Shown: piece by piece, positions 10,099 to 47,035 of the stretch
Numbering within the stretch: the first letter of the stretch is position 1
How the letters are laid out: each line of letters starts with the position of its first letter
NCBI GenBank assembly: GCA_039621445.1
Contig: CP154954.1
Location: 2,976,001-3,037,322 of the forward strand
Direction: 5' to 3'
Length of the DNA: 61,322 bases
Source of the DNA: Euglena gracilis
Lineage: Eukaryota
The notes under the pieces: model-generated
Told to the model about the DNA's origin: nothing
Databases searched by the model: none
What the model saw: only the letters and a program-made list of their open reading frames with translations
Translations under genes and position numbers: made by a program

Positions 10099-11937
10099 CA
10101 CGCGGTAGACCCTGAAGATCGTTGCCTGCCACCTTGTGAAGTTGCCTTCATCCCCTGGCCTCATATCCAATCTTGACCATGCACATGGGGGGAAGAGACC
10201 CGGTTTTGTGATATTGATTGGAGAGGCACGGGAACTTTTGTCGGACCCCGGTGTGTCCAGCCAGCCAGCCAGCGTCTTTTCCCAGCCTCGGACCCCGTCC
10301 CCTGCATAGCCCGGTTTTAATCTCTGTCCAGCCCCCGAAGGGCGGCTGCAGTGTAGTGTATTTTTTCTTCAAATGCAAAGTGCATGGGTCAAAACGGGGA
10401 AACGGGGGAAGAATCGGTCGGATATGGCCTGCCTAGCTCAAAAATTGGTCAAAATCGATTTCTTTTACATGATTTGCAGATGGCTTTTTTTTCCTTCAGT
10501 TTCGATATTCTTCTAATGCCTGGCTCAACCCCACAACAAGTCAATTCCATCCGGGAGACTCTACGGCAGAGGGGTTGGTAGCAACATTTCGCTGACCGAC
10601 ATTGTGGCCTGCCCCCGCTCTCCGTCTTGCAGGCTCATCATACTCTCGTCGTGGCAGGAGGCATTGCTGGCTGACAAATTTGCAAGGGTGGACGGACCCA
10701 TGAGCGCCAGCGGGAATGCTTTTGAATCGGTCACACCAGCGAATGATAAAACTGGCAGTAGTTGCCACGTTCTCACATGCATTGACGACGTCAAGAGCCA
10801 CTCTTTTCAGCCACACGTGTGTGCCGTATGATCCAAAAAAGTTAGTCGATTATTTTGGGAAAGCGGCCGAAACCGATGAGGTATTTGGGCAATGGGAGGG
10901 TGCGTGCTGTCCACAGTCCCCGTGTTTTGGCTGTGGGGTGGCAGCAGAGAGATTCACCCTACCTGAGATGGAGGGCAGGTTGCTTTCAATTCAGCGGGCT
11001 TTCCGGCCACCTAATATTTAGTGGTTCAGACCAGCGCTGCGCAGGCAAGACTGAAAACTGGTCGTATGGTCATGGTCATAACACTCTGTCCATCCTCTTA
11101 TGGATCCAGGAGTTTACCGGACGCCCACCCTGTTGTAGGTAAAGCCCTGCTTTCAGGCATTATTTTTTTAAGTCAAATAACTTGAAACATTTCCAAGGTT
11201 TTAAAGTAGGCATTTTGCAGGGTTGCTTTAGTTTTTTTCCTTCGGATTTTCTTTCTTTTCGGTGTTTTAGGATTCTTTAGATTCCCAGGATATTTTTTAG
11301 AGGCCGCCTGGGCATCAAACGGGGTCCAAAATTACTAAGGTGAAACCCGTTTTCCTCAGTTAGAGTGGTGCCATAAATTCTTTTTTCCCGGAGTTGGTTT
11401 GCTTTTTTGTTTTTGCAACATCATTTTTGCTCGGTCAGAAACAAGCTTTGCCAGAATGATTTCTAAGAGTTTTTTTTTTTAGAGTTTTAAGGCTTTTTTC
11501 AAAATTTTGGCCATTTTTTCTGGTTTTTTAAGGTTTCCCCAGCACTGCTCCCAAGTCCCGACCCGTCCAAACCTGGGGGCCCTCTCCCCCCTCGTCGTTC
11601 CCCCAAGTCCCCCTACGGCTCCCAGTCCTCTCCTCCGCTGCCGTGGAGAACCATTGGCGGCCTCGATATCCGCCTGCGAGGCCGGATTCCCATGTGATTT
11701 TTTGTAAGTTTTGCCTGACATTGGCAGACGTGGATAATTGAACATTGGACAGAGATTCTATTTTGGAACGTTCCAACGTTGCTGTGCCTGGGGGGTCGGT
11801 AGCTGCGTTACGCTACAGGCCCGCACCTTTGGAGGACATGGCTGCCAGCTCCCTGCCCGCCCTCGAACCCCTGGCCCCCGGGGTGCTGGACTGCTGCCCC
11901 CCGCACTGCGGGCTGCGGCTCGCCGGGGCTCCCCGGG

Positions 11938-12322
11938 CAGGGTTTGATACAAGGAGGGCACATGGTTTAGGTGGGGGGGTGTCCCCACACCCCCCCCTCC
12001 TGGCCCGCAGGGGGGGGGTCCGGACCACCCCCCCCCCCACCTGCCAGGGGAGTCCGGACCGACCCTCGGGGGGTTCCCGGGACCCCCCCCCAAAAGGGCC
12101 AATTATTTCCTCCGGTACCAAATTTTTTTTGCATTTTTGGTACATTTTTTGCCCAAAAAGTGCCCAAAATGGCACTTTTGGTCGCTTTGGGGGGTCCAAA
12201 ATTTTCGGCCACCCTGACCGCGCACCTGTTTAGGTGGGGGGGGTGTCCCCCCCACCCCCCCCTCCTGGCCCGCAGGGGGGGGTGTCCGGCCCCCCCCCCA
12301 CCTGTCCTTATATCGAACCCTG
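11938..12322. mobile_element. hAT-like MITE, CAG...CTG ends, 8-bp TSD
   Basis: TIRs cagggtttgatacaagga / tccttatatcgaaccctg; perfect TSD tccccggg at 11930-11937 and 12323-12330. A related left end starts at 16571. Confidence 0.9.
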
Positions 12323-15300
12323 TCCCCGGGCTGACTGGGCGGCGGGCCCGTCGGCGCCGCTCACCCGCCCGTCCCCGCACCGTGCTGCCGGATGTGGGGA
12401 CGTGCAGGGTTGCTTATGCCTGCCCTCCCCCTCCTGGCTGCTTTTTTTTTTGGTTTCTGTTGGTTTGGGGACACCGATTAACTCCTTTTGGCAGGGCGTC
12501 TGGTTTCTGGCGCCTGCGTTTCTCTTGACGTTGCTCTCTGTGGTTTTGTTTTGGGGGAGAGTTTGCATTTTTGCCCCCAAAACCTGACTTGTCCAGCGTA
12601 CCTCCCGAGTGAGTGCTTGCCACCAAGCACCTATGAAATGACCGGGCGTGAGCGGGCATGACTGGGTCTGGGATTCTGGAGAGTTTGCTTGCCTGCTACT
12701 CATTCCAGCCAAGCAACTGCATGGGTGGGACTGTCTCACCGGCAGCGCATGGCCTTGTCATCGCTGTGCCGCTCTCCACGCAAGCGGCCCTACATGCAGG
12801 CGTCCTGAGCGGGCAACTGATGTCGCGGTTAGCGTCTGCCTGCCTCTGATCCCCCTCTGATTTGTCCCAGCCTACTCATTCCAGCCGCAAGGCCGCGGCG
12901 CCCCCTGGCATTGTCCTGGTGGCTGTTCCACGGGCCTGGGTTGCGGTGGTGTCATGGCGGCCAGGCAGATCTCTGACACAACAGGACGGTCTGCCTCCCT
13001 CTGATCCTCCTGGTCCTAATGTCCCCCCCCCCCAAAGGCGCGCCATGCCACCATCATCCAGTTTTCTCCTTTGGCCCACCTTGGCAATGTCACTTTGTTT
13101 GCTTTGCTGTGTTGGGGATGTTTCAGCGTGCACGCTTCTCATCCTGGGGGTTGCATTTTCCATTCAATCCAAAAACTCGAGCGATCATTGCACCATTTCA
13201 CACCATTCCTTTTTATTCGGTCTTCCATTTTAGGGCAGTTGTCGGCCTGCTTCCACTCGTTTCTAACCTGGCTACCCCGACTGGCCCTCAATGTGTGGTC
13301 CACGTGGGCTCGTGATCGACTCAAAAGTCTGACAACCCGTACCCAGACTTTCTCCTCCCTCCTCCCTCCCTCCCTCCCTCCCTCGCTACATTTTTTGTGC
13401 ACCTGTGCACTTGGGCAGGTGCACCCCTGTATGTACCGTGGTAGCTTCTGTGGAGATGGTTGGAGCTATTGTCTTTTCTGTTTCAGATAGAGCTTTCAGC
13501 CCCTCCCCCCGAATGAGATCTCCAATGTAAGCGCTCGGTTTAGATGCCGGTTTGCATTTCCGTCGCTTTTATCCAAAAAGAATCTCAGCGGTGGCTGCTT
13601 TGGGTCAGCATTTATTTTGGCGGTGCACACAACTAACCCCCCCCCCCCCATGTTCTCAGGGCCCCTATTCACTAACGTGGTCCGATAGTTGGGTTGACCC
13701 TGGCCTTCATCGGTGCTGGCCAAGCGGTGGGGAGAACCCAAGGATTCAGTGGGTACACAATGAGCTGACAGTGACCTACAACGACCTAACCCCCCCCCCC
13801 CATCCCCAAAATAAGATGCCCGTCTTTGGGTCTGTTGCTGGGAACCTCCTATTTATGGGGGGTCTTATTTTTGGATTTTTTTCTTGACTGACCCAGGCCC
13901 GAAAAAAACTTTATATTATTTTTCAGAACACTAAAAACAGGCTGGCATCGACCTCCCCAGCGCAACAGCACCCACCAAAGCGGCCACGCTATTCCCCGCA
14001 ACTAGGGCGTGAGACTGGGGGGACGGCGTGGTGCTAGTTCATGGCAACCAACTGCCGGAGAAAGGTAGCCCCAAACACCCGTTTCTTTGGGCACAGGAAG
14101 TGTTGAACCTTTACCACTCGATTGGTTGCATGAAAGCGGTGGGACTTACCACCCACAAACCATGCGCAAAACTGGTGCGTTTCAAGAGAAACGGTGGAGA
14201 ATACCAGAAAATGGGTTTCGGCCCGACGCATCCGGGTATTTCAGGTACCAAATTTTGAATTCTGCTTCTTGTAACGCAGTACTGTTGCAGACAAAGCGTC
14301 GAACAGTCCGGCCGTGTGGGCCGGGGAACAGCAGTGCAAATGTTCGCACATTAAGGCAGGCAAATGCTCGCACGTCAGATGACGTGTTCAAGTGAACATT
14401 ATGCACTACTTCACACCACAAATTTCATCACCACACAGTCGTGGTGCAAATCAATGGCTGGCGTGCGGAACTGCGTTCGCACGTCACAGACCGTCACAGA
14501 CCAGGAGATGGTATCGCACGACTGATATGTGTTTGTGCACGTATTTGCGCCAACAAACAAATTTTGTTTGTGTGTGCTAAGGCTTGCACAACGCACTATT
14601 TTGAAGTGAATGATTAAATGTTCGTGCGCGCATTTGCACCAACAAAGAAATTTGGTTTGTGTATGCAAATGCGCGCACCAACACACCTATCACGCCGCGA
14701 GCACAAACAAATTGGGTTTATGAGCGCATTTGCGCGCACACAACACAAAACGTTGAAGTTAAGACGACACGTCCTTGCGCAAATGCGCCCACAAACAAAT
14801 TTTATTTGTGGGCGCAAATGCGCGCCAACATCTTGGGGAAACTAGTATGCAGAACGGTTTGTGCATGGGCGCAGACGAACACTGATGATTACCACAACCC
14901 TAGAAGGTTTTCGGACATTTGCACGCACAAACACACATCAGTTGCGTGACGGCTGGCGAACGCAGTATGCAGTATGTGATGTAATATTGCACCGTGTGTC
15001 CTTACAGGCGGCTGTAGTGCCCAAGCCAGTTCAGGCACCACATCAGCACCAGTACCAATTGTCGGAACAGCGGGTGTGTGCTTCCCACCTGTTTGACACC
15101 AGAGAGCACCCATCTCACCCTCTGCCCTTTTCGCGTCACTCGGTAAGCAGCATGTGTACCAAACTACCTGGAGTTACAGCCGTCCAATACAGGGTTGCAA
15201 CAGTTCATAAATTGTTTTGCTTGTGTCAGGGTACAGGGTCCATGTGTTTCATAAAAATTGTAAATTTGCCCAAATGTACCCATTCTCAAGAAAAAGCCTT

Positions 15301-16082
15301 TAAGTGCGATTCTGGCCGCCTAAGACCCTGGGTCTTCTTTTTTGGTCCGTTGCTGAAAATCCCAATGGGGTGCTCTTTTTCGGCGGGTCTGTTTTCTTTA
15401 TTTTTGCTGAAAATTTGGCAGCACAAAACCTTCCTGCGCGCGGGGGGGGGGGTCCAAACAGAAGTCCAAAAAAGAGTGGCTCTTGCTGGTGAGCGAAAAA
15501 TTACCTCAAAAAACTGGTGGGCAAAATCAAACAAGTCCAAAATACTCCGTTTTGGGGGCATTTTCACAGTTTTTTGGGGTCCATTTTTGTATTTCCCCCA
15601 AACATCCCGAGGGATTGTTTTTTGGGGTCTAGTTTTTGGATTTTTGCTCAAAACCGGCAGGGGGTCTTGTTTTTGGGTTAGAATTGGCCGTTGTTGCCAC
15701 AGGATGGTTGCTGCCACCGAGTCCACGCCACACGCACGCTGTGCCTATGGCGAAGAGGCGGCGTCTCACTGGAATTTTCACTTTCTTGTGATTTTCACCT
15801 TTTTCCTTTCACAATTGACATTCTTTTTTCTTTGCTTCGCTTTGCAGTTATCTTTCGATCAATTTCTCTCCTTTGTGCATTTTTTTTTACGTTTCTGGGG
15901 ATGCAATTTCCTTTCTGGGCATACTGCAGTTTTTTTATTTGTTTTCAATTTAGCGCTTGTTTGTCGTTTTTTTTGCATTTTTTTCGAGCCTAGTGAATGA
16001 GTCTAGTGAATGGGCCCCTGACCTTCACACATACTGACAGACAGCCAACCAGACAGAAAAACCTGTAAACAAACTAACAAAC

Positions 16083-16086
<4 letters not shown>

Positions 16087-16125
<39 letters not shown>
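16087..16125. repeat. (AG)n microsatellite
   Basis: Direct reading. Confidence 0.95.
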
Positions 16126-16127
<2 letters not shown>

Positions 16128-17272
16128 TGTCAACGAACAGTTGAGAGATTAGTGTTAATGCACGTAACAATTGCCTGGTATCAACAAGGAATCCAGGCTT
16201 TTCAGGAAGGTCACACCCTCTTGACCCCCCCCCCCCAGGGTTCCCTCTTTCCCCCCTGTGGAGCTGTAAAGCCGCACGATACTCCCATTACACCTCAGTG
16301 GGGTGCTGCTGTGCAATGTCCCACCTCCGATGCGCGGCTCATTTCACCGGCAATCCTGCCATGGGCCTTGTCATACGATATCCTCTCCCGCAGAGCAGAG
16401 AACGGCGGGTGGGCAACCCAGCACGCCATTGGGCTCTCCTACCCTGAAGCCAGACCTCACTGGGAGCAGTCTGTGGAATGGCAGCAGCGGTAGCAGAAGT
16501 GGACCCACCCACAATTCTTTCTATACCCAACCTGGGGGGGTAGGGGGTGGTTTCGCCGGACCCCCCAAGGCAGGGTTCGATAGAAGGAGGGCGTAGTTTA
16601 GGTGGGGGTGTTTAGGTGTGGGTAGTTTAGGCGTGGTTTAAGTGGGGGTGTCCCCCCCCCCTCCCCTCCTGGACGGACCTCCCCACCTGCCAAGGGGGTA
16701 GGTCCGGACTGAATGCGGGGGGGGGGTACCCGCCCCCTCCCCCAAAGTCAAATTTTTCCTCCGGCGCTTTGCACCATTTTTTTTTGCATTTTTGCAGGAG
16801 GAAATGGGTATCCACAATTTTTCCACAAATTCCGTAATTTCTCGCATTTATCTGCAATTTTCCGAAATTTTTCAACAATTTCTTTCCCCTTCCGCAATTT
16901 TCCGCATAAACCTGAAATGGAAGGTGAAATGAGTTCCGACAACCTTTCACAAGGGAACCCAGGTGCTCTTGTTTGTTATTTTGTTGCAAATTTGCCAAAT
17001 TTGCTTAATTTTACAAATATTGTCAAAAAATTGGCAATTTCTCGGCCTTTTTTAGATTTCCCCCCCGACTTCTGCTGGGAAATAATTCCTCCTAAGAAGA
17101 ACTTCACATCCTGGACCAGATTTTACCCGAGACCAAAGTTTTTGCAATTCTCTTTGGCAGTTTTGGATCAAGAAATTCCACATTTCCAGAATCAGCATGT
17201 TTCCAAATTTACAAGAAGCATGTTTTTTGGACCTTTTTGTTGGAAAAAATGTGAATAACGGCTCAAAGCTTA

Positions 17273-20600: not shown

Positions 20601-21287
20601 CCTGGCCGAAAGAATGACGATCAGCGACGTCATCCATCACACCACGCACCACAAATCCCACAACAGGAGGCCCACGGAACGGGGAGCACAGCCCCCCCCC
20701 CCCCAGTGATTATGTGTCTTTACGAACACCCACCCAGAGCCACTTCTGAAGAAAATACAGCACTATCAACCGCCGGTTGGTCCAGCAGCCCAACCCCGCC
20801 CACCGCCCACCCACTCTCAAGAACCCACCACCCCCATGCCTCTTGGGGGGTGCCCCCCACCCTTGGAGACTCTCCTTTGCTGTGAAACTTTCGGCGGGAC
20901 ACATACTCAAACCCCCTGGATGGGGGGGAAGTCTAGGTAGGAACATTTCGGTGATCTGGTGGCCGCAATTAAAAAACCAGAGGATTAACATGATGGAAGA
21001 AAACTGCATTCATAATGTTTGACGGCTGTTCTTTCAGCAACCAACGCGGCATGCATCGATAATGGGAAACATATCTTAGTCCCCCCATTAAATTTCATTT
21101 TGAATTTTCAACAATACTAAACATTTTTGAAACGTGTTGCAATGCAGTCCACCCGGTTGGAGCGATCTGCCCCCAACCTCTGATCATCCGAAGGTCCAGA
21201 CGTCTCAATCCGATCTACGCCTTCCTGCCACCCCTCCCACCTCCACCACGGTTCTCCAGCGTTCCGTGCCCCCCCCCCCCAAGCCGT

Positions 21288-21457
21288 ATGGCCACGCCGT
21301 TCAGCCTCATGCAGCAGCTCCCCGGCAAGTCTGACCTGTGGCTGCAGCTGCGCGGCTCCGAAGCTGCCCGGACCGCCCCCAGGCCATAGAGCCATCCCCC
21401 CAAGGTCAGCCCCCCCCCCCCTGACTTGGGTGGCCCGGACTGCTCCCAGACCACATG
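21288..21457 (+). repeat. Conserved coding-like module copy 3, with a stop codon and a duplicated 3' tail
   Basis: MATPFSLMQQLPGKSDLWLQLRGSEAARTAPRP*, followed by a second gcccggactgctcccagaccacat. Confidence 0.8.
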
Positions 21458-31914: not shown

Positions 31915-32152
31915 CAGGGAATTTCTTAAGCTGGACCCCACCCTATCCCGGGGGGGGGACGTCCGGTTTAGCAGGCCGGTCAGCCAGCCAGCCAGCCAGC
32001 CAGTCAGCCAGCCGGTTACCACTCGACCCCCCTCCCCTGGGGGGGGGGGGAGTGGTAATAAAGTAAAACAAAGTAATGAGGGGGTCCAGCCAGCATTTTT
32101 TTCCAGCCAGCCGTTTGGACCCTGCCAGAGGGGGTTCTCAAGAAATTCGCTG
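31915..32152. mobile_element. hAT-like MITE, CAG...CTG ends, 8-bp TSD
   Basis: TIRs cagggaatttcttaag / ctcaagaaattcgctg; TSD aatgggcg / aatgggcc; absent from the homologous sequence near 11905. Confidence 0.85.
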
Positions 32153-32425
32153 AATGGGCCCCCTCCGAGGGCACCCAGGCTGACTGCGCTGCGTTCCCAT
32201 CGGCTCCACTCGCCCGCCGATCCCTGCTTCATGTGGTCGGACATGGGGACATGCAAGGTTGCTTATTCCTGCCTCCCCTCCTGACTGCCTTTTTTTTGAA
32301 CCCTCATCCCTTCTCTTGGCCTCTTTGTCTGGTTTCTTCTGGTTTTTGGGGGCATGGCCTTTGGATTTTTGTCCTAAATCTGGTGTTTTACCCTTTGTAC
32401 CTGCCCAGGGAGAACCCCACCAAAC

Positions 32426-32726
32426 CAGGCTTGTGCTTAGTCGGGTGCCTACCCCACGGGGGGGGGGGGGGGTGCTAGGGGCAGGCACCCCATGGCACCC
32501 GATCCGACCCCCCCCCAGGGGGGGTTAGGATTTTGGGGGGTGCTTGCCCATAGCAGGCAACCCCCCTCTGACCCCGGCGCCGAAGGTGCTGGGGGCCTGG
32601 GAAAGGCCATTTTCAATGAAGATTTTCTGGCCCCCCCGGACCCCCCCCCCCTGGGGGTGCCTGCTAGGGGCAGGCACTCTATAGCACCCACCCACCCTAC
32701 CCCCCTGGTCGGTAAGCACAAGCATG
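32426..32726. mobile_element. hAT-like MITE, 8-bp TSD
   Basis: TIRs caggcttgtgctta / taagcacaagcatg; perfect TSD caccaaac; empty site caccaagc in the homolog near 12621. Confidence 0.88.
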
Positions 32727-35700
32727 CACCAAACACCTGTGGCATGACTGGGCGTAAGCACCGATTTGCTAGGCAACTGTATGGATGGGATTGGATCTCG
32801 GCCAGAGCACAGCATTGCTGTAGCTGCAACTGACGTGGTCCTCTCCCACGCACCCCTGTTGCATGACGTACGTGGCGGCCAGGCAGATGCTCTGAAAGAT
32901 GGGGAACTGATGTCGCAGTGAGGGTCTGCCTGCCCCTGATCCCCCTCAGATGGGTCCCAGCCTGCCTCCCCCTGTGTCACCCGGAAGTAAGCCAGCCTAC
33001 CATACGGTGCACAATCCGTACTCTTTTGAAGGTCCTTGGGCCATATGCCGGAGGGTTTTCAAACAACTTGCAGAGTAAACGGAGGCATTGTTGAAAGAAG
33101 GAATGGATTCATTTCCTGAATCACCATTTCAATCTGTGTTCCTTTAATTTACTGATTTGCAGGATTTTTGTCACCCAATAAATTGGGTTTTGTCTGCCAG
33201 AACTGCACATCCCTGTTACACACACATTGAGGACCACAGCACCTCCTCATGTCAAGGAAACTGCCTTTTTTGTATCCCCGCCAGAATTAAGTGCCAATGG
33301 CTCTTCCTCGTTTCCTAACCGCCCAGGGACCCTTGCGATGGCCCTCAATACGTGGTCCAAGCGACCTCGTGATTGAGTCCAAGGACCAACAGCCTGCGCA
33401 ATCATCTTCCTCTTGTGGAGGCCATGGTTTTTGGGTGATCAAACCGCAGTGAGAAAAACATTACCATGGTATCGTGCCGTTGAAACAGCGGTTGTTGAGA
33501 CCCCCCCTGTCAAGGGCACTTTCCTTGAACACTTGGCTTGTCTTGGACAAGAGGGGGAGGGTACCTGTTAAGTGCTGAGTTTAAACTATCGAGTGTATTT
33601 TTCACTGGTCCTTGAGGGGGGGGGGGTCCCACAATTATCAGCATTTTGACCAATTGTTTGGAATCGTGTTTTTGCGTCCGAAAGCCTCCTGGTGCACCAG
33701 GTTGGTGGACACCCAGCCTTTTGACCTCAAAGCTCTAGTCACATGCAAAAAAAAGTCCCACATCATCTAGGCATCTATCGTAGCTTATTGTGCTTGGGAG
33801 TGGGGTGCACTTTCGCAAAAAGTAATACCAGAGGTGGGAATTTGGGGTTGAAGAAAAGATTGGATGAGCAAAAAAATGGCCTTAAAAAGGATCGGTGGTG
33901 TGTCGGCCAAAGTCGCAATCATATTCGGAGACCAGAACGCTATGAAAAAAGGGGATAGAAAATTTTTTAAAAATATGTGGAAGACAAGCTGTGTGGTTAT
34001 CTCCAGCGTGCCCATAAATTCTCATACCCACGTCCACAGAGAATTTTCATCCCCTGAAAAAAGAAATGGGAAAAAAGAATGGCACCCCACACTCCACAGA
34101 ACCATGCTGAAGAACCTCAGAGTTGCGAGTACCGGTGGAGCACTTAGAACTGAGTAGCACCACCTCAAAATGAGGTCATGCCAAACCCCAGGGTTTACCC
34201 CCAGCTCCCTCGAAAGAAATCCATCAAGTCCCTACAAGCACATCAGCCTGCCAATTCTTGCTCGCGGTTAGAAAACACTCTGACTGCACAACATCCGACC
34301 TGCAACTGGTGCGCGTGCTCAATGGGGTTAAAATCAGGGCCTGTTTTTTTTTCTTTCAAGTGGAGTGTTCGCAGTGGATGGGGTCACCAATTTCACCAAG
34401 ATTTCACTTGTGAGAAGGCCAATAAAATACGCCCAAACGCGATACATTTCGGCAATTTTTATGTCTCTGTATCTGTATCTGTATCACTCGATGCCAAACC
34501 ATATTTCTGCAATCCCGCAGCGGTGCAATCTGGATTAAGCAGTCGCAATTGCCCGACAAAGCACCAATCCACCAGGCGCAACTCTGAGATGGGATTTGGG
34601 CTGGTTCTGTGGAATGTGCGGGGCCATCATCGCACATACCCGGGAAAACGTCCCCTGTGCCAACCCTGAACCGCCTTCAAAGCAACCTTCCACCTACCTT
34701 GTAAACCAGGTTTTGTGCTGAGCTCTTCATGTGTCTGATGGTGCCATGCTGCAGCAGACGTTTGAGGCTTGTGGCAGCCAGGGCGGCCCAGCCCGGCCCC
34801 AGGGTTGTATGGGAAGCTCTGCAGACATGAAGAAGGTGATAGGGGGGAGTCGCCGAGCTCTTATCCCTTTATGGGTAAGAGCGAAGCTTACCCCTGGGGA
34901 AATGGGGGGGGGGTTCGAACCGCCCCCCCCCCCCCCCCCCCCCCGGGTCGGGGCCACCTCAGGAACCGGCGGATTATCACCATGATCCCAGCTCCGTTCC
35001 CGGAATTTTTTTTTCAGTCGCGACTGGATTTCTAGTTTCCAAATCACCTCCGTTTGACCCCCAACTCCCCGCCAGGCCCCAAGTATTCAGACGCGAAGGG
35101 GTCCAAACTGGGTAGGATTGGCCCGCCCCGCCCCCCCCCTTCCGACTCTGCCATTTCGCCAGGGTCCAAAAATGGGTCACCCGTCGGTCAAAAATTCGAT
35201 TTTTCGAAAATATCTAGAGAAAGCGTACATATTCCGGAAATGCGGTCTGACGAAATTACCCCCCGGAGGCCCTCCATCGCCCCCCTCAGCCCGTGGCCGA
35301 CTACACCCCCAGCCCTCCAAGCCATTCTCTCTTTTATAACCAGGCACTCCATCCATGCCCTTTCCCCCCCTACTTTTGGGTCCGTTACAAATCCGACTTT
35401 TTTTTCTTTTTCCTTTTTTTTCCTACCTCATAGACATTTCCTTTTCTCGCAAGTCCTCTACAATTTGCCCACCTTCTGTAACCCCATTCAACGGATTCCC
35501 TCACCACCCCCCCCCCCCCCACCCACCACAACTTTCCCCTAATGGGCTTCTTTTCCATTTTCCCTCTTTTTTTTTTCTCGAACCCTTACCGAACCTGCCC
35601 CTACCTTCAGGTTGGTCTTCCGAGGACCATTGTCTTCCAGCAACCCAGCTCCACGAGTTAGGTCCCGTTCTTTTCATCTCCGTATTTTAAACATCTTTTA

Positions 35701-36122
35701 CCCTTTTTTGTTCCCCCCCCACCCCCCTTCCCTTGTCCTCAGTCTTGCCCCCCCTCCCTGCAGGGCCCTTCCGTTATTTTGGTTATTTCTTTTGTTCCTC
35801 TTTTCCAATCCATTTTGTATTTCAGCCTCCTGGGTTTTTCTCCACCCCCCCTCTCTTTCCGACTTCTAGGTCAAAATTTATTTTTTAAAATATTTATTTC
35901 TTTTTTCCTTTATTTTGTCACCCCGGGAGTTTCACCGTTTTGGCCGCCGACACGCCTGGCCCGTGTTCCGGCACGCTTTTGCGGCGGCCCAAAATGGCCA
36001 TTTTGGGTGTTTTTTTTGGGCCGTTTTTTGGTCAAAAATCGATTTTTCCAAATTATCTCGACAATGAAGCAAAATCAAAGAAAATGTCCGCAGAGTAAAA
36101 ATGAAGCCCTTGGAATGCCCTA

Positions 36123-36584
36123 ACCCCCCCCCCAAAAAAATAAGACCCGGGTCTTATTTTTGGGTCCGTTGCTGGAAGCCTGCAGGGGGGGTCTTATTTT
36201 TGGGGGGGGTCTTATTTTTGGATTTTTTCTTGACCGACCCGGGTCCGAAAAAAACACCATTTTTCAGGTTCCCAAGAGGACTATAATTTTTGTCTCGGCG
36301 CTTCGCGCCATGTGAAAATTAGTGTAAATTGACATTTACCGTGTTTTTTGAACTTCAAAAATCCGAAAATTTTTGAAATTTCATCATTTTTGTGTATGAA
36401 ATTGGGTTTTTTGGTCATTTTTCAGGGGAAAAGTTCACCGTCCCCGGCGCTTCGCGCCGTAAAGGGGGGTCTTATTTATGGGGGGGGGTCTTATTTTTGG
36501 ATTTTTGCTCGATCGGCCCAGGGGGAGTCTTATTTTTGTGGGGGGTCTTATTTTTTGGGTGGGTCTTATTTTTGGGGGGGGGTT
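36123..36584. mobile_element. MITE with C-tract/aaataagaccc TIRs and ggtcttatttt subterminal repeats
   Basis: (C tract)-aaaaaaataagaccc / gggtcttattttt-(G tract); related fragments near 13800 and 28585. Confidence 0.7.
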
Positions 36585-37031
36585 TATCCAACCGTGTTTT
36601 TTTCTTTTCCCCCCCAACCCTTCGTGTAGCCATAGAGTTACGGCATTTTTTTCGGCCAGTTTCGGCCCATTTCTGGGCCATTTTGGGCTTTTTTGGGGGC
36701 CAGAAAAATCGATGTTTCCAAAATATCTCGGAAATGAAGCGAAATCAGAGGAAATGTCCAGAGACCTAAATTGAAGCCCGTGGAATGCCCTATCTAATGG
36801 TACCCGATATCTTCCTGCCAAACCCCGAGATGTGGCTGATTTATGGCATAAAACAGCATGGCAGGCTTCCGATTCTGCCGTTTTCGGCCATTTTTCGGGG
36901 GAAAAATCAAAAAATTTTCCCCAAACAATCATTTTGGGCTTTCCAGACCGGCGGCCTGCTGCTTCATTTTTCCTTCTGGGGGTGGTTATAAGTCATGGTT
37001 TGGTAGTTGGGCCCAATGGGGGGGGTATAAG

Positions 37032-37474
37032 CAGGGGGGGGGAATGCAACTTGCATAATTTGCATTTTTTTGCATAATCAGGTTTTCCTGAAATTTGCAT
37101 TTTTATGCTTTTTTTTTTGCATTTTTTGCATAAAATATTTTGCCCTGGAAAAATTTTTTGTAGTTGGTTGCCGTATGTTTGGAATTTTTTGCATTTTTTT
37201 GCATTTTTTTTCATAAAATATTTTGCCCTTGAGAAAAATTTTGTAGTTGGTTGGCATATGTTTGGATTTTTTTTTGCATTTTTTTGCGTTTTTTTTTGCA
37301 TAAAATATTTTGCCCTGGAAATTTTTTTGATTTTAGGCAGCAAAGCTCTGTCATATTCCAGCTTTTTCTCAAGGTTTTCATGCAAGTTGCATTTTTTTTT
37401 TCTTTTTTTTTTTTTTTTTTTGCATTTTTTTTGATTTGCATAATTTGCAGGGCCAAGTTGCATTTCCCCCCCTG
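37032..37474. mobile_element. CAG...CTG MITE with T-rich tgca repeats, nested in the end of another MITE
   Basis: TIRs ca-(G tract)-aatgcaacttg / caagttgcattt-(C tract)-tg; flanking direct repeat gtataag (7 bp). Confidence 0.8.
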
Positions 37475-37506
37475 GTATAAGTGGGGGGGGTTATGGGATG
37501 GGGCAG

Positions 37507-39592
37507 GCAGACCTGTACCTATATTTTTTGAGATTTTTCACATTCTTGTTGAAAAATCACATTTCCCGAGTCGAAAAAAATTGCTTGCATTTCTGTGGCT
37601 GCTGATCGCAAATGTGTGGAAAAACCACATTTTCGGATTTTTGTGTTGGCTACCCGGACAAGCACTGCACCCTTGACCTATCTTTATAGGGACCTTTCAC
37701 CTCCCTCTGTACTCACTGATTTGACAGGTGACAGTTTCCCGAAAATTGATAATTTACCGGGCACACTGTAGATTTATTGAATATGTTAAGATTTTTCATC
37801 TGTATACAAGGATTTTATACAAGGATATACAAGAAAAAAATTGGGACTTACCTAAGGAGCCCAATTGCCTGAGAGCATTGGACATTCACAGGTTGCCCCA
37901 CTCTCCTCGTTTGTTTCAGGGTCTGCTCTTGCTTTTGGATTGTCCCATCCCTGATTGCCAGCAGAAGTCGGCAACCGCTGCTACAGGATGGTTGCTGCCA
38001 TGGAGTGTTATCCTTCCGCTGAGCCATGTCGCACCCACAATCTTTATATTGGGTGAATCTAGGGCAGCTCTCAACACGTGCAATACATTTTAGTTATGGT
38101 GAGGGCGCCAACTCCCCATTATAGCCCTGATCTATGAAGCTCCCCACCTCTGTGAGGGGACTCTGAAGATTTTTTGTAGTTGCAAAACCTCAATTAGCTG
38201 ATTTTTTTTGCAGTTTTTATGAAATGAATGAATGCTGTTTTGACCAGTTTTCTCTCCGCAAAAAATATCACGGATTTTCCCATCTCTGCCTGGATGTTTG
38301 TTTGTTTGTCAATATGTGTGTCTGAGTGTCTGTATCTGTCTTTTGGACATCTTCAGGGAAAAAAGCGTGCAAAAGTGTGCTAAAAAATGCAAAGAAAAAT
38401 CCTGAAAAAAAAAATGAGAATGTTGGGAAAAAAGAATTAAAGGGAAAAACACACAAAAAACCATGCAAATGCAAAACTCTTCCAAAAATGCAAAAAAAAG
38501 TGTGCAAAACGGAAGAAAATTTGCAAGTGAATGGAAGAGTACTGCTTTCCACTGCAGAAAAAGGGCAATTGACCACGCCAGGACCTCACCAGCAGGTGGG
38601 GACCTGGTTTAAGGGTCCTCAGGTTGGGGTTTGGTTTGAGCTAGGGTTTGGGTTACGTTCAGGATTGTCGGTCGATGCCACATTTAATCCTATCTAATCC
38701 ATGGCATAATCATCCTTGCCCTGATTCATAAAGCAGCAGGCAAGTCGAATCTGGACAGCTGAAAGGGCGGTTTGGAAAATCAGATTCCTTGTTAAATCAG
38801 GGATTTCTTGAAGGTTGGACCCAGGGGGGGGGGCACTCAGGGGGAAATTCCACAGAAAAGGTTTGTCAAATAGGAGTAATGTGCGGTGTGAGTGCGTGTG
38901 CAATTTTTTTGTTGGCTTATAATGGGCCCTGGGGCATCATTTCTCGGCCTTTTTTCCTGTTCCCCGAGTGTTAACGACCCAAGGCATCGTTTTGCTTGGT
39001 AAATGGTTGGGGAGCGATGGCAAAGGTTGGCTGTTTCAAAGGGAAAATGGGCCCCGAGCCCGCCACTGCTTTTTCAGGGTCGCTCTTTTGTGTGACCGAA
39101 CCTGAAAGAAACCAGCAGCATCGACCTCCCACACCTCCCCCTCGATCGAAAGTTTATGATTTTTGCCCGCAGTATCGAAAATTCCACAGAAAAGATTTAT
39201 CAAACGGGAGTAATGTTCGTGTGTGCGTGTGTGTGCAATCTTTTTCGGCTTGTAATGGTCCCTGGGGCATCATCCCTCGGCCTTTTTGGGGGCGGGTTTG
39301 TTGTTATTTTTTTTTTGGCTCGAGATCAAAGTGATAGATGGCCGGATGTGTTGCCCCCACAGTTCCCCCCCCCCCTCCACACCCCCCACACCTCACCCCC
39401 CCCCTGCTGCCACCCCACACACGCCCTTCGCTGCCACCCCCCCCCTGTCACCCCACTCTTGGACCTCATTGAATGCCAAGTTTTTGGCATACAATTCATT
39501 TTTGTTGGCTCCTTTTTTGGCGTCATTTTTTGACACCGGCCTCGTCTGGGGGAGGGGATGCCCCCCCAGAACAAAAATGGCATCACTACTCT
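37507..39592 (+). repeat. ~2-kb dispersed duplication, copy 1 (copy 2 at 59462 to window end)
   Basis: Long high-identity colinear match with several indels. Confidence 0.92.
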
Positions 39593-40111
39593 GTGCAAGG
39601 TGAGGCTCAAATGTCTTTTTGCGTTCCATTTTTTTGAGATCTTCCCGTTCATTTCCATGTGTCTTGCCATGCTCTGGCAAATTGGTCATCTGAGCCTCCA
39701 CAGAGCCTCTGAGGAGCCGCTGTGGAGGCTGGTCGTTTGGAGCCTTCGCGGAGCCTCTGTGGAGACGCGGAGGCAACCCCCCAAAAAGGCAGGATTCAGA
39801 TTTTGTTGTCGTGCCATCCCTTACTCGAACTGACTCCTAACCCAGACATTTGTTGAAACATTAGAATCACAATTGCGCAAACGGTGCCTGTGAAGACTTG
39901 TAAAGACAATTGCCCAAACCAATTGATACCACAAAGCTTGCACATCTGCAATTCTGCTAGCAATCCACTGAAAATTATTGTTTTTCACGGCATATGGCAT
40001 GAGAAAGAAGAAACAAAGTCCTGAGTGTACTGATTGGGAACGTCCACGCTTTGCCATCCAGCGGGGACACAGCGATGTTGGTGATGCTGCACGAAGTCCG
40101 CCAGGACTGAT

Positions 40112-40418
40112 TGCACTGGGCGCCTGGCCACCAGCGGGACGTAGCACAGCACCCTCTCCACGGAAGGGCACTTTGGGTACTCCGGGATGGCCACCAGGGT
40201 CGTCTGCACGATGGCCACGATGGCTAGGCGGTGCAGTCCTGGGTGCGGACAGGTTCGAAAGGGTGGAGCGCACCTGGTGCTTCTGCACTGGGCGCCTGGC
40301 CACCAGCGGGACGTAGCACAGCACCCTCTCCATGGAAGGGCACTTTGGGTACTCCGGGATGGCCAGTGCAGTCCTGGGTGCGGACAGGTTCGAAAGGGTG
40401 GAGCGCATCTGGTGCTTC
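40112..40418. repeat. Tandem duplication (172-bp unit; second copy lacks ~37 nt)
   Basis: tgcactgggcgcc... starts at both 40112 and 40284. Confidence 0.9.
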
Positions 40419-40692
40419 CAAAAGTTGTCGTACCACAGCACGCAGACTTTCCCCGCCTCTGCTGCCGCAGTTCCACCCGACACCCGTCCGCTCGCTCCTC
40501 GTGACCACTGATTTCAGTCGGGTTCAGTCAGGTGAATGCCGCCGGGACTCGGGCGTCTGCTGAATGACTCCTTCATCTGCATTGGACGTCCTCAGGGGCC
40601 ACGATGGGCTGTTGCGCCATACAGGTTGCCAGCACAAAAAACATACCCCCCAAAAGCAAATTCCCCTTTCCATTTTGTCCCCAGTTGCTCTC

Positions 40693-41873
40693 ATGCCCCC
40701 AAAAATGAGCACTGCCGACAGAGCGGCTTTAAGCAAGCGCGTGGAGACGTATCTCTCTTTTGTTCCACCCTGGTCGCTCAATAAGATTGCAAATCATGAG
40801 AAAATATCCAAAGCTACAGTGCAAGGTATATACCCAGCTTGTACACAATTCACACCAGCCACTTATCCCAGGTATGGCATCCAGATTCAAAGAACGCGGC
40901 ACGCTTGATCGCAAAGTTGGATCGGGATCCAATCAGCAAAAGGCAAAGAAATATTCAGAACGGTGTGCGACGTTTGCAATAAATTATATTCCATTCCTTA
41001 ATTCCCACAGGTTTCGAAGAGGTGTATTAAAAGTGGCAATGAAAAACCCTTTTTTGGAGTTGCAAACAAATCGCCGACGAGCATTTCCTCCGAGTTAGCA
41101 CCGCATTGTTAGCCCGTCCAGCAGGGGCAGTGGTTAAGGCGTGTTTGTCAATCGTTATGCATATGCTTTTTTTGTGTGAATTTCAGATACCGCCAAAACC
41201 ATCTCCAGAATTCATCCGTACAATTCTACGGAAGGCGGGCTTGTGCTGCCAAACCGCAGCAAGGAAGCCATTACTGTCCTCGGTGAACAGTTTGGGTTTG
41301 GTAACAATTCTTTCCCCTAGCAAAAAGGGGGCACGGGGTGCCAGCCCGTGGTTTCCCTGGAGACCAGAGATCTCAGGCCTAACCACCCCTGCTCTTCCCC
41401 TGACAGGGTTCTCCGGCTAGCCTCCGCCACCGGCCCCCCCCCCCAAACCACATGGCCGCGCCGTTCAGCCTCATGCAGCAGCTCCCCGGTAAGTCCGAAT
41501 GGGGTTAAGGTCTGGCGACTGTGGTGGCCAAACCCCTCCGTTGAAGCGCAGCACTCGCTTCCACCTCATCCACGCTGTGGTACTCTCTCCGCGCACGGTG
41601 GGGAGAAGCCCCGTCCTGCTGGAAGCGGTAGCCCGCAGTCCTGCACAATGGATTGTGAATATGTCGAATATTGGCGTGCAAACACCAGGCGTTTCCGCCA
41701 TGGTGCTGCACAAGTTGCGTGGGCATGTGTTTGCGGGCAAAGACCATTTGTGGTCGGCTCTGCAAGCTGCCTTCGCAGAAATCTCCCCCGAACAGGTCAA
41801 AGCATTTTATGACAGCATGCCTAACCGCATGCGGGCTGTCATTGCGGCTCGCGGTGGACACACCCGCTACTGA
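40693..41873 (+). pseudogene. Tc1-family (DD34E-type) transposase remnant
   Basis: HTH-like KIANHEKISKATVQG...RFKERGTLDRKVGSG; IRTILRKAG...ARKPLLS; FQQDGASPH and WPPQSPDLNPI (minus strand); C-terminus YDSMPNRMRAVIAARGGHTRY*. Confidence 0.9.
41290..41498 (+). repeat. Conserved module copy 5 (3'-truncated) lying inside the Tc1 transposase
   Basis: Near-identical to ~27132-27340. Confidence 0.85.
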
Positions 41874-44104
41874 CCTTCCCATACCCCGCCCTTTTGCATG
41901 ACGGTTGCATTCGCGGCAAATCCAGCGCTTGATTGGCCGCATTGCTGCTTATAGCTTTACTCACCAGATGGGGGTATGTTTTTTGTGCTGTCAGGGGGGG
42001 TATGTTTTTTGTGTTGGCAACCTGTAGGGAAGTCGCGGTGGCGCACTGTACGGTACAGGACCTAGGCATCCCGCAGCAGCAACTCTGTCCAGTGGAGTCG
42101 CAGCTGCCATCACAACTCCACCAGCAGGTACTCCAAGCAGGCGCCGTCGGTAATCAGCAGGACCCGGGTGTGGGCATCTGGATGATTAAGTTCAGTAGGG
42201 GTCATCTGGGCATTGGCCACAAACACCTCATAGCCCTCCACGAAGTGGTCCTGGACGCATCTGCCCAGGATCTTCCCCATTTTGGCAGAGGCAGGCATAG
42301 TCCGCATACTGCGATGGTGGGACCGACTGCTTTGCGACATCATTACAGAATTTGCAGTGCCCAAACAAAAAAAGGTTCAGTGTGTTAGTTTAACAATTGT
42401 ACATTCGTCTTGGAATGTTTGTACTATGTTTTTTTGTGAAATTGTGCAAAGGAACATGGATTTTGTCGCATCAGAGAATTTTTGCCGGCACAACAGAATA
42501 AGAGCGTTCGACTTGGCACCATCTCAGCTTAATTTGCATAACGGGACAATTACTCTGGATGCGTGGAAAAAAATCTGCTCGTTACAACCCCAAAGAATGA
42601 TTTTAACAACAGAAGCTCGAGCATTTTCTGTTGACAGAACAGTGGTGGAGTACACGTGCCAGGTTTCAAAGGGTGCCGGATGGTTTGCCGTCAAAATTGG
42701 ACGTGGCACCAGGTGAGTCGTGCAGCATTTCCGCAGTGGTTCAGTTGCAAATGAATAGTCAGTCTGTTCAACCCGGCTTTTAGCGGAAGAAGAAACCCGT
42801 CGCTGTTCTGATCACATCCCGTAATTGTGAGGCCAATCAAACAGAAAGTTGTTTTTTTCTTGCTCTTCATCCACACACTATGCATGAGCTCTTTTGATCC
42901 TCCTGCAACAGACACAGAATCCATGCCAGTGTAAGGTCCAAATCGTGACACCGTCAAAATCGCCCACCTCCTGCCATGGCTCCCAGCCCCCTGGAGGTCA
43001 TACCACCTAGCCAATTTTATTGCAGAACTACTTAACCCAGGCGCTGTCGGAGCAGCAGTATAATGTAGACATATCAAAATACCTGACCTTGCTTGAGTTG
43101 GGATGGCGTCAACTTCTGCCTCAACGCTGGTGTGTCGGCGTCTATTTTCTGTTGCTGTGTTGTGTATTGCCTCTTCACTGACGAATGACCCTTCCAAGAT
43201 TTTTGAAGGAAGCTTGCACCACCGGTACAGGTAAGCGCTTTTTTTTTATTACAGGACGAACCCCCCCCCTCCCCCAGAGTTGGTAAACTGAAGCCTGCTA
43301 GGCATCCCCTCCCCCAGAGTTTGGTAAAAAGAAGCTTGGAATTATTTCCCATCTTTCCCCCTAATTTTTCCCTGTGGGGATGTAGCTTACGCCTGGTCCA
43401 GTGGAGAGCTGCTGTGCAATGTCCAACCCCTCTCCGACGCGCGGCTCATTCACATGCATGCCTGTCATGGCCCTGTTATATGTTTTCTCTCCCAGAGAAC
43501 AGAGTGCGATTGGTGGGCAACCTAGCATGCCTTTTGAGCGCTCCTTCCTTGCAACCAGACCTGACTTGGAAATGGGGGTGGCGGTGGTGGTCTGATTAGC
43601 GGCGGTTTGCAGAGGTTGGAAAAAAATGTTCGTGAGGTTTCTTTTCCAACCCATTCTGGGTGGAAGGTGTAAAGTTGGAGCAAGGGCATGATGCAGAATT
43701 TCCAAAGTTTTGGAGCTTGGTTGCAGAAAGACGTTTCCAGAAATGGGTCGAAGAATTGGCCGTCACCCCCCTCTCAGTAAGCTGTCATGACCGAGAACCT
43801 GTCAGCAGCCCACCAACGAAACTGCCAGGTCCCCAGATACTGGCCAACATGTCGAGGTTAAAATTCAATGAAGTTCCTTTGAAAGACCCTGAGGTTGGAA
43901 TCCCCCCAGGGAGCCTGTTCTCTTCCCTCCATATTCGCCAACCTGTCTTCATTGGGGGCACCTGTCCTCCTCTCTCCCCGCATCTTGTCTCCCAACGATT
44001 GTTTGAAATTTTTCACTTTTTTCTTGAAGAAGCAGATTCCTGAGTTTTTTGTTTTTTGGTTGTCTTGTGGTTTTTGATTTATTTTCTTTTTTTGTTTGTT
44101 TATG

Positions 44105-44135
<31 letters not shown>

Positions 44136-45065
44136 TTTTTTATTTTTATTTCTGGAGAAGCAGATCCTGAGTTGAAAAAAACATTCGAACATTGCTTTCA
44201 AGCTTATCCCAAACTTGCGAAAAATTGTGTTGTCGGATTTTCTGTCTGCCGGCGGTCGAATTTTTTTTGACTTTTTTCCCTGTCACCCAGCCCCACCCCC
44301 CCTCTTCGTACTTGCTGGCCTGCCTCCTACATCGGTGCTTGCTGATTTGTCTGGGGACAGTTTCCGGAGTGGGGAGGCTGGGTAAAGATGGAACCAAGGG
44401 GCAGGAAAGGATGGTGGGATATCCTCTCCCAACGCTTTCCAGCTTGCTGAGGCTTCCTCAGGCTGTCTGCGAGGTGACCCACCCCAGAGTGTATTTTCCC
44501 AACGGGTTATTTTCATGTGAGGGAGGTGGCTGACCGATGTGATGCTTTTTTTTTAAAATCTCTGAGCGACTGACTCGTTCGTCACCCTCTCTCATGCTGA
44601 AGTGGTGGCTTCTGTCTGCAGGAATTTTTTTTATCCCATTGTTCTTTCCCCTGTGCTGAAGTGGTGGTTTCTGTTTTGGCGAATTTTTTTTATCCATTGT
44701 TTTCGTTCGAACTGAAAATGTCAGGACATTGACGTGAGGCAGAAAAATGACTGCTGAAAATCTGGACAACTAGATGTTCCTCCAGCCAAATTTATTATCA
44801 GGCTCGATATTAAGGCGCAACATTCATACACTGGCGCCTTATTGGCCGCATTTCACCCGTATTTTGGCGTGTCAAGTTCAAGGGGGAGAAGCTGCAACCG
44901 AGGGGGGGGGTGCCTCCCTGGACAGCACCCAGAACTCCGCTCCCCACCCCTTGGTTTGTGAGAATCAGGCTCCTGGGCACCACATTAGGCACACTGACGG
45001 GTTTGCTACAGCACCACTCAGAAAATGTGCACATTTTGGCACTGAACTTCCAACTTCCTCCAGGT

Positions 45066-45330
45066 CAGGGGTTTTTTTTAGTCGTGGACCCCCGGGTGTG
45101 GGTAGGGTGGGTGGGTCCGGCTGAGACCCCCCCCCCCCTCCCCGGGCCCCTAGGGGGGAGTGGGATATACTTTTCGGTGCCGAAGGCGCCGAGAGTTTTT
45201 GAAAAGGTGCTATTTTTGGAATTTCCCGCGATTTTTGAGTGGCTCCGGAACCCCCCCCCCCCCCCGGGTGGCCCCGGGGGTGGGTGGCGCGGGGGGTCCC
45301 CCCTCCCCCCCGGTCTTAAAAAAACCTCTG
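45066..45330. mobile_element. hAT-like MITE, CAG...CTG ends, 8-bp TSD
   Basis: TIRs caggggttttttt / aaaaaaacctctg; perfect TSD ctccaggt at 45058-45065 and 45331-45338. Confidence 0.9.
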
Positions 45331-47035
45331 CTCCAGGTTCATTGGCCCAGTTCGGATTGCCCGGCACCCAACCCCCCCCCCCCCCCCAAACCCGGGTCAA
45401 GCACCTCCCTGCCCTACGGTGTGGAGCCTGCCCTGCGCAGCCAAACCCAGGCTTCAGTGGCCTGGTTAGGATTAACTGGCGCGGGGTTCCTGCCTAGCGG
45501 ACACTTCGCAGCCCTCTCGCCTGCAGTCACCACACACACAGTCGCACCGTTTGGCCCCTTGGCCAATTTTGACTCGGTCAACTCACACCACAGGCAGAGA
45601 GAGAAGATGCCAGGGTTGCTTCGCTGGATTGCAAAATGCTGTTTCCTGGTCCGAAATTCCCCCCCTTGTGTGAATGGCACCCGCGGTGGTTTCAATACTT
45701 TTGCTGCACCAACTGTCCCCTTGTGGACTGGAGAGTCACAGGGGTGAGGCTGGACGGGGAAAGGAATGACGTTTTGTTGTCTGCTTTAATTCTTCAGATA
45801 TGAAATATTTGATTCTGGACGATGTATTGTAATGAATGGACGATGCATTCTCTGATGAAACTCTGAACAATGTATTTTGAAAAGTGGTGTCACCATTATT
45901 TCGGCGAAAATCAAAATTCTTTTCCAGATGTTCACCCAAAGAAACATCAGCCATCCGTTCTGAAGTCTTTCCCCAACTCTTCAGCAATTTTGAAAAAGGT
46001 TTTGCTAATACTTGTGATGTTCAATTTCTACGTTCGTGCGCTGTTCTTTTTTTTGCCTCCATACAGGCGGACCAGCATGCAACCTACAGTTGGCATGCCG
46101 GGGTGGGCAGGACCACCACTGAACACTGCTCAAGCAGAAGCATTGCTCGCTTCAATCAGAAACGATTCCTCCGAATGTCCTCAGGATTAAGTCACCAGTT
46201 TTTTTGGAGGAGGCTAATTCTTTTTCGCACCGACCTACCCCCATGCTTTTTTAAGTTTTCTGGTGATGTGATTTATTTGTAATTGGAAAAGTAATTTTTC
46301 CTTCTTGGTGATGATGTGAAACGAAGAGAATCGTTTTTCAACTGCGTAATAGCACAGGGATCCTTCCACTTCCTGAAAAGGAAATTAATTGAAATTCATG
46401 GAGGATCACGGAAAAAGGCGGGAGACCATTTTTACAGCAATCGCAAAAATTCACGGATATTCACGGATGAGGCAGAGGGATATGATTTGATATGGAATAT
46501 GATTTTTGACTTTTTAAAAAAAATAAAAAAAGGAAATTCACGGAAAATCACTGAAAATCACGGATACATTTTGGCCTCGGCCAGCACGGAAACAGGAGAA
46601 ACCCTGAAAGGCAATGCACAGGCACCGGGGTGGCAAATTGCAAATTTTGCATATGAATATGAGACAAGCCAACCCTGTGCTGCCACTGTGCCAACCCATG
46701 TGGTTCTGTCTCTCTTGCCCTCCCCCAGTATTGGCTTTTTTTTGACCCATTAGCACCCCGCCCTGTGCCACGCGTGGCCTGTCCACCGTGCCAGGACAGC
46801 CCGTCTTGCTGAGAACCCCAGCCACTCCTCGAATCCGCAGGGGAAATTTCCCTTTCCGGGGATTCTGGGCAGCAATGTTGGCTCCCTTCTGCGATTATTT
46901 GCCATTGGCCTCTCCCCAGCCGATGGACAGTGTGGGCCACACGTGTTATTTCACACCAATGTGAATCAGGGCACCACTATGTCGACACGGTAGTCAGGCC
47001 ACCGCAGCAAAGTCAGGCATTTAGTATCGGTAGTA

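Follow-up and report, generated by a model that had tools for sequence, protein, structure and literature searches.

Within the 61,322-nt stretch of Euglena gracilis DNA analyzed here (contig CP154954.1, positions 2,976,001 to 3,037,322; hereafter the window, whose own numbering is used throughout), a short element at 31915-32152 is present in DNA and, together with exactly 8 nt, absent from RNA. It lies in a gene that we call gene B and is one of seven named elements that begin with CAG, end with CTG (with one exception) and mostly sit in 8-bp target-site duplications; the anatomy of these elements and the splicing of gene B at borders other than GT-AG were both directly observed. We consider it very likely that they are MITEs (miniature transposable elements with inverted repeats) which, in euglenid nuclear DNA, are removed from RNA by the nonconventional splicing of the host, a known pathway acting on a known kind of element. 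For this central inference, RNA provides support at one copy and comparative evidence at another.

Three kinds of data were mapped on positions 25900-45899, a stretch covering six of the seven named elements (11938-12322 lies outside it): raw RNA reads (runs X21 and X22), contigs presumed to derive from RNA (X15) and DNA contigs (X1). The RNA libraries are unstranded, gene B is weakly expressed (depth of about 1-2), and the results on joints concern the 15 joints listed, with 652 further joints lying beyond them. One of the joints listed, 31906->32153, skips 246 nt, which corresponds to the 238 nt of the element plus 8, and has a slide of 7, corresponding to the seven matching positions of the element's duplication. 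It is found in one read of X21, in three reads from two starts of X22 and in one contig of X15 with a depth of 401. No contig of X1 has the joined form, and contig 32082-32449 of this run spans the filled right junction; word depth in X1 is 120-380 over single-copy DNA. Since the depth of 401 is close to those of the next three junction contigs in X15 (487, 729 and 772), removal of the element looks near-constitutive. Differences from the window sequence at 32802, 32865, 44504 and 45421 are common to the RNA and DNA runs, so that the reads stem from this locus in another strain. No back-joint of an excised full-length circle is present among the joints listed.

The borders of the removed segment can be compared with the Euglena splicing code, genetically defined as 5'-N3-CDG...CH'G-N5-6|R(exon) (Nomura et al. 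2025, PMC12501133). In that study, CAG/CTG introns were spliced in vivo in knock-ins with a phenotype readout; a one-base change in the 3-nt donor spacer abolished splicing and, in the 5-nt acceptor spacer, a 1-bp insertion was tolerated and a 1-bp deletion reduced splicing. An earlier description placed CAG and CTG at +4..+6 and -8..-6, with a pyrimidine|purine (Y|R) step at both junctions (Milanowski et al. 2016, PMC4770533). The sole + strand placement of 31906->32153 with N3-CDG, CHG-N5 and a purine as first base of the following exon is slide 5, which delimits a nonconventional intron at 31912-32157 (+), reading GCG-CAG...CTG-AATGG with G as the next exon base, i.e. the MITE with 3 nt before it and 5 nt after it. 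None of the placements within slide 0-7 has GT/GC-AG borders on either strand. The inverted ends of the element match at 14 of 16 positions and form a duplex of -17.0 kcal/mol. In the spliced copy B a single frame stays open for ~150 codons across four RNA-supported junctions, and reading into the retained element meets a TAA within six codons.

Comparative evidence comes from a tandem paralogue of gene B, paralogue A (9936-16465, + strand), which has exon matches at 9956-10073, 10617-10645, 11566-11636, 11826-11905, 12325-12369, 12848-12873, 13282-13316 and 16325-16389, colinear and in the same order as in gene B, with 78-93% identity. Conservation between the two copies extends to the leader acceptor, to the ATG and to the ends of the first intron. 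Once 11935-12327 is cut from A and 31912-32157 from B, exon 4 aligns colinearly through both sites: paralogue A is uninterrupted where B has its MITE, i.e. it carries the empty site of 31915-32152, and at the place of MITE 11938-12322, which in A is flanked by TCCCCGGG on either side, copy B contains just one CACCCAGG. To judge from this alignment, two lineage-specific insertions occurred in one coding exon, about 35 nt apart, both with a geometry that the code would remove exactly. The predicted intron 11935-12327 reads GGG-CAG...CTG-TCCCC|G and fits the code; the junction letters C|G assigned to both ends of this element by the first-pass annotation, made from the sequence of the window, are correct. 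The frame of paralogue A open from 11742 stops within the element (the open reading frame, ORF, ends at 12233) and a frame is open again at 12234-12584. To go by the comparison of the paralogues, MITE 11938-12322 is probably spliced in the same way as 31915-32152. An alignment of the paralogues made without removing the elements was uninformative, as unrelated MITEs were aligned to each other via their G/C runs. At the place corresponding to 32426-32726, two similar 8-mers are separated in paralogue A by ~37 nt, which may be what a deletion has left.

Two further observations concern the paralogues. Copies of the leader acceptor and first exon occur at 8032-8204, 9936-10098, 21270-21386, 27228-27406 and 41385-41498 (85-98% identity); two of these five belong to paralogues A and B, and the others look solitary, with one located in a gene B intron. 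Where the third intron starts, paralogue A has a code-fitting GTG-CAG (12395-12410), and copy B at 32238-32260 has an 8-nt local duplication (GGACATG repeated) and CAA for CAG, the RNA-supported donor being 8 nt further upstream; the pair may be an example of the drift of a nonconventional donor.

Each of the seven named elements has terminal inverted repeats that begin with CAG, more precisely CAGG, and the 3' ends are CTG in six cases and ATG in one. The flanking 8-mers match at 8/8 positions for three elements, at 7/8 for three and at 4/8 for one. The element at 11938-12322 (385 nt) has ends matching at 16 of the first 18 positions and is flanked by TCCCCGGG on both sides (11930-11937 and 12323-12330, 8/8). 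The one at 29412-30033 (622 nt, ends 15/16) has flanks matching at 7/8, as does 31915-32152, which lies between AATGGGCG at 31907-31914 and AATGGGCC at 32153-32160. Those at 32426-32726 (301 nt, CAG...ATG, ends 13/14) and 45066-45330 (265 nt, ends 14/16) have perfect 8/8 flanks, CACCAAAC and CTCCAGGT, respectively. At 37032-37474 (443 nt) the ends have in common CAG and a G run, followed by AATGCAACTTG after a 1-2 nt indel; seven flanking bases (GTATAAG) are common to the two sides, and the interior contains an 83-nt tandem repeat. The seventh, 26249-26629 (381 nt), is MITE-like and has ends matching at 17/17, with flanks matching at just 4/8, so that it has no target duplication. The first-pass annotation had described short elements with differing terminal inverted repeats, a CAG start and a CTG end (ATG in one), mostly in 8-bp duplications; the first part holds for all seven elements and the second for six of them. 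For a chance control, we collected all CAG...CTG pairs of the window lying 60-1500 nt apart with complementary ends at 11/13 or more (n=44): the adjacent 8-mers reached at least 7/8 in 4/44 pairs and no pair scored 6, and with the 8-mers shifted 9 nt outward none of the 44 reached 7.

The named elements belong to different families, their likeness within the window being limited to G-run/C-run modules. In DNA run X1, bins with an element reach a summed word depth of 3e4 to 4e5, and several bins close by that contain none have about 50 to 380; summed word depth is not a copy number, and values hundreds to thousands of times those of neighboring unique bins indicate that the element families are high-copy repeats. 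When metagenomes were scanned for a degenerate motif of 16 letters built on both ends of 31915-32152, 115 loci were found, each with a single match, and blastn likeness was limited to 18-19 nt in 2/115; these are chance matches, and the scan yielded no further copies of the element.

Several side observations bear on these repeats. In the six duplications (starting at 11930, 29404, 31907, 32418, 37024 and 45058), position 3 is a pyrimidine in 6/6 and position 6 a purine in 5/6, a pattern nnYnnRnn that would amount to a palindromic preference in a sample (n=6) too small to test; position 6 is also the base with which the exon begins once the cut is made, and there the code demands a purine. The segments 34571-35237 and 35905-36571 have DNA word depth as high as the named MITEs, and no clean CAG...CTG ends or duplication were found there. 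A 240-nt element at 25491-25730 differs in its inverted ends (GTGTCAACGACAC, matching at 13/14) and is flanked, within a C run, by a repeat of 7-9 nt; it may be another type of MITE, or this repeat may be a chance match. At 29465-29486, 35122-35139 and 45251-45268, many RNA reads match the element as far as its internal G/C runs, beyond which they turn into long, poorly agreeing C runs; this suggests abundant transcripts of related repeat copies or homopolymer read-through.

We propose the following sequence of events. The named elements would be non-autonomous cut-and-paste DNA transposons, forming several high-copy families with common CAG...CTG termini, and their insertion would make 8-bp target-site duplications. 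The nonconventional-intron pathway would then recognize the paired CAG and CTG and cut 3 nt upstream of CAG and 5 nt downstream of CTG, before a purine. Because 3+5=8, the element and exactly one copy of the duplication would be removed. An exonic MITE, in either orientation, would thus leave an RNA with exactly one copy of the duplication and the pre-insertion frame restored. Older code-fitting introns that have no duplications would be decayed insertions of the same kind. The published border repeats are in favor of this proposal, both those of 84.4% of E. agilis introns (PMC12501133) and the eight-nucleotide ones of a recently gained gapC intron in that species (PMC4770533).

An 8-bp duplication with terminal CAG/TAG is the usual signature of hAT transposons. 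The 8-bp duplication and the CAG ends are the sole basis on which we assign the elements to hAT, and we infer that the mobilizing transposase is of hAT type. Of the competing explanations, the one that survives best, itself unlikely, is that these are real intron-forming MITEs mobilized by another superfamily, e.g. Merlin, P-like or an unknown transposase. Two Merlin families with 8-bp duplications are documented in E. gracilis (PMC8101967), and our literature search, in the portions of the sources available, found no report of hAT for Euglena. Merlin elements as a whole have 8-9 bp duplications and a conserved terminal 5'-GG, and the E. gracilis copies end in ...caagtac (PMC8101967 and its supplement). 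The named elements begin CAGG and the terminal 5'-GG of Merlin is seen at none of them, and their CAG termini with 8-bp duplications bear the usual hAT signature; both points speak against this explanation.

Direct repeats combined with complementary ends are a classic setting for template switching by reverse transcriptase, and at 31915-32152 a 7-nt repeat flanks the joint and the element ends are complementary. The 246-nt skip might accordingly not be splicing, and reflect such switching or reads from an uninserted allele or paralogue. The few raw reads that support the joint are compatible with this, as is the multi-copy nature of the gene family, in which one RNA contig past 28483 differs from the window at 3/17 positions. 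Against it, the joined contig, with a depth near those of the neighboring junctions (487-772), is not a minor fraction, X1 contains no joined contig despite its depth over single-copy DNA, and the other eight introns of the same transcript are removed too, with slides of 0-5 only. Knock-ins further show that CAG/CTG introns are spliced in vivo (PMC12501133). We regard an artefact of either sort as very improbable.

Equally hard to sustain is a process running in the reverse direction, in which circular intron RNA was copied back into DNA, the MITE families being dispersed copies of introns and the 8-nt repeat being either carried along or a footprint of repair. According to a review (PMC11282704), excised nonconventional introns occur as circles of full length, the eight-nucleotide repeats of the gapC intron were explained by its authors through double-strand-break repair (PMC4770533), and no transposase was found in the window ORFs scanned. 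However, five of the seven copies are intronic or otherwise non-exonic and have duplications of equal length, the sequence of the 8-mers varies from element to element in the manner of target duplications, and inverted repeats of 14-22 nt go far beyond the need of the published code and are typical of DNA transposons. A spliceosomal introner does not fit, 31906->32153 having no GT/GC-AG placement.

Gene B itself (27249-47000, + strand) is leader-accepting, with an ATG at 27295. Its RNA-supported exons are 27249-27383, 28446-28483, one ending at 31911, 32158-32242, 32785-32876, 32938-33027, 33337-33383 (alternative end 33389), 38000-38056 (alternative start 37969), 43421-43494, 44426-44515, 45415-45608 and one starting at 46887; a loose end and the paralogue together point to a further + strand exon, which would begin at 30346. 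At least 11 RNA-only skip joints are listed (nine introns and two variants), each absent from the DNA contigs. The full code N3-CDG...CHG-N5|R fits the + strand at four of these 11 (27384-28445, 31912-32157, 32877-32937 and the variant 33391-37969, which is of the CTG...CAG type); as three of the four fit + only, by the asymmetry of the 3/5 spacers, we place gene B on this strand. The intron 27384-28445 (+, 1062 nt, ACC-CAG...CTG-CCCCC|G) is also found in paralogue A, has no duplication and is not high-copy; 32877-32937 (+, 61 nt, GGC-CAG...CTG-CCCCT|G) has an 8-bp terminal stem, and its 3' end is conserved in paralogue A. End duplexes range from -14 to -29 kcal/mol in eight of the nine introns.

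Other named elements lie in larger introns: 32243-32784 (joint 32242->32785, 542 nt skipped) contains MITE 32426-32726, 44516-45414 (joint 44515->45415, 899 nt skipped) contains MITE 45066-45330, and 33384-37999 contains MITE 37032-37474. MITE 29412-30033 is intronic as well, between exon 28446-28483 and the inferred exon from 30346, and 26249-26629 is located ~620 nt upstream of the leader acceptor of gene B. The 4.6-kb intron has two RNA forms, 33383->38000 and 33389->37969, of which the second alone fits the code (CTG...CAG). The exon chain past 33383 leaves the single frame; either exon 33337-33383 may contain the end of the coding region, or the coding form may be the variant 33389->37969. 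In the intron at 43494-44426 the end pairing is weak (-4.5 kcal/mol), and one RNA contig has 11 additional letters where its two sides meet, which might stem from a micro-exon or from a difference between paralogues.

That the host is a euglenid, as presumed from the letters in the first-pass annotation, agrees with the RNA processing of gene B. None of the 11 RNA joints listed has a GT/GC-AG placement within its slide on either strand, and the fit of four of them to the code was described above. In addition, one X15 contig carries adapter letters and then T8C directly before 27249, where the genome has a pyrimidine tract and AG|G at 27248/27249; the T8C looks like the end of the spliced leader, whose conserved 3' end in E. 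gracilis has the same letters (PMC4778363). The splicing code and the leader-like T8C together point to a euglenid host. The same annotation had given the geometry of nonconventional introns as established and their link with MITEs as suggested before; both are in print, the former in PMC12501133 and PMC4770533, the latter as a proposed MITE-like origin in PMC3935182, the review PMC11282704 and the discussion of PMC12501133.

Several results weigh against our proposal. The key joint rests on four raw reads and one contig, from unstranded libraries and a weakly expressed gene, and the leader evidence consists of nine letters in one contig. A recognizable MITE with its duplication is present in one of the nine RNA-supported introns, and five of the nine do not fit N3-CDG...CHG-N5 in any listed form. 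Pairing of the ends discriminates in part: the duplexes formed by an intron's own ends have a median of -17.0, against -12.65 for mismatched ends, with 4/9 beyond the 5th percentile, and mismatched intron ends also pair fairly well in this G+C-rich DNA. In the minimum-energy fold of 31900-32170 the element ends are not paired, other pairings being chosen. Among the elements, 26249-26629 is without duplication and 32426-32726 ends in ATG. The 12 + 140 + 13 ORF translations of the window that were scanned with Pfam contain no transposase domain, LINE (long interspersed nuclear element) domains being the only ones found. Finally, the first-pass annotation had expected the element plus one duplication to be spliced out and gave three example gaps; the expectation held at 31915-32152 (246 nt, in RNA only), and two of its three gaps, 32423-32731 and 45063-45335, are not among the 15 joints listed, because both copies lie in larger introns, which are removed whole.

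A broader reading, which we put forward tentatively and rate at somewhat below even, is that euglenid nonconventional splicing is in effect a precise RNA-level excision system for one class of DNA transposons, the splicing motif being the transposon terminus and the 3+5 spacers the 8-bp staggered cut. In E. agilis, 71.8% of introns are nonconventional and 84.4% of all introns have short border direct repeats, these 'slidable' introns having been left out of motif finding (PMC12501133). Under the broader reading, with the same reservation for the whole, most of the hundreds of thousands of 'slidable' introns would be decaying hAT-like MITE insertions, and exact removal from RNA would be the tolerance that let the elements invade exons on a genomic scale. 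RNA-level excision would also account for Y|R at both junctions, since both copy positions 5|6 of the duplication.

These findings address two open questions, the origin of euglenid nonconventional introns and the logic by which their cut sites are chosen. A MITE origin has been suggested since 2014 with no named element, and the window gives a concrete case: a high-copy MITE whose 8-bp duplication is almost intact, whose site is empty in a paralogue and which RNA lacks together with exactly 8 nt. The equality 3+5=8 would explain the 3-nt and 5-nt spacers of the code, and the hypothesis becomes countable genome-wide, with a repeat length of 8 and a cut between duplication positions 5 and 6. 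If general, it would mean that transposons can give rise to introns on a large scale by a second route, independent of the spliceosome, and the design of synthetic Euglena introns would gain a natural rule set. In the portions of the literature available to our search, we found neither the statement that 3+5 equals the 8-bp duplication nor a named intron-forming MITE family in Euglena; the supplementary repeat data of PMC4770533 and PMC12501133 may already show an excess at 8.

The remainder of the window provides the genomic context. Its sequence contains no N, and the first 8 kb have 64-72% G+C against ~50% for the rest. A LINE is present at 3012-7345, with an ORF at 3012-6563 encoding Exo_endo_phos (AP-endonuclease) and RVT_1 (reverse transcriptase) domains according to Pfam. 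Weak RNase_H and zf-RVT matches (6092-7345), below the Pfam curated cut-offs, follow in a different frame from this ORF, which indicates that the copy is frameshifted. The LINE protein has 77 relatives among metagenome-derived proteins (about 50-58% identity, about 1850 aa). Beyond 7.9 kb the scan yielded 174 ORFs of at least 105 aa, of which 23 in the array at 48-58 kb were left out; Pfam gave no family for the 140 translated ORFs of this size at 7971-61320 or for 11 more from the array, and Rfam at gathering thresholds gave no match in the window. This tandem array (47600-59200) has ~5 units of ~2.45 kb, all of which contain inverted repeats 60-140 nt long, and a perfect 16-nt tandem repeat in four copies is located at 60570-60633.

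With hAT MITEs the named elements have in common the 8-bp target duplication, short inverted ends starting with CAG, a non-autonomous nature and a high copy number, and they differ in that no hAT transposase was found in the window ORFs scanned. Maize Ds was reportedly found by Giroux and colleagues in 1994 to be spliced from mRNA. The removal of Ds uses cryptic spliceosomal sites and is imprecise, whereas that of 31915-32152 is exact to the base. The Merlin families of E. gracilis likewise have 8-bp duplications in a euglenid genome, but the ends seen here are CAGG directly after the duplication, and no transposase accompanies them.

A close parallel is found in the nonconventional introns of Euglena (Milanowski 2014, 2016; Nomura 2025), in which the borders are not GT-AG, CAG and CTG stand at +4..+6 and -8..-6, the next exon starts with a purine, the intron ends pair and direct repeats occur at the borders. 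The intron 31912-32157 agrees with every one of these sequence rules and differs in that it belongs to a high-copy MITE family, has an 8-bp duplication that is nearly intact and is absent from the empty site of the paralogue; the published accounts, in their available portions, propose a MITE-like origin without a named family, a superfamily or the equality 3+5=8. Introners of Micromonas, Aureococcus, dinoflagellates and others (PMC11282704) are similar in that DNA transposons with inverted ends become introns and their duplication helps exact removal. However, introners use GT-AG-type sites and the spliceosome, whereas here none of the 11 joints listed is GT/GC-AG and the cut sites appear to be set by the distance from paired transposon ends.

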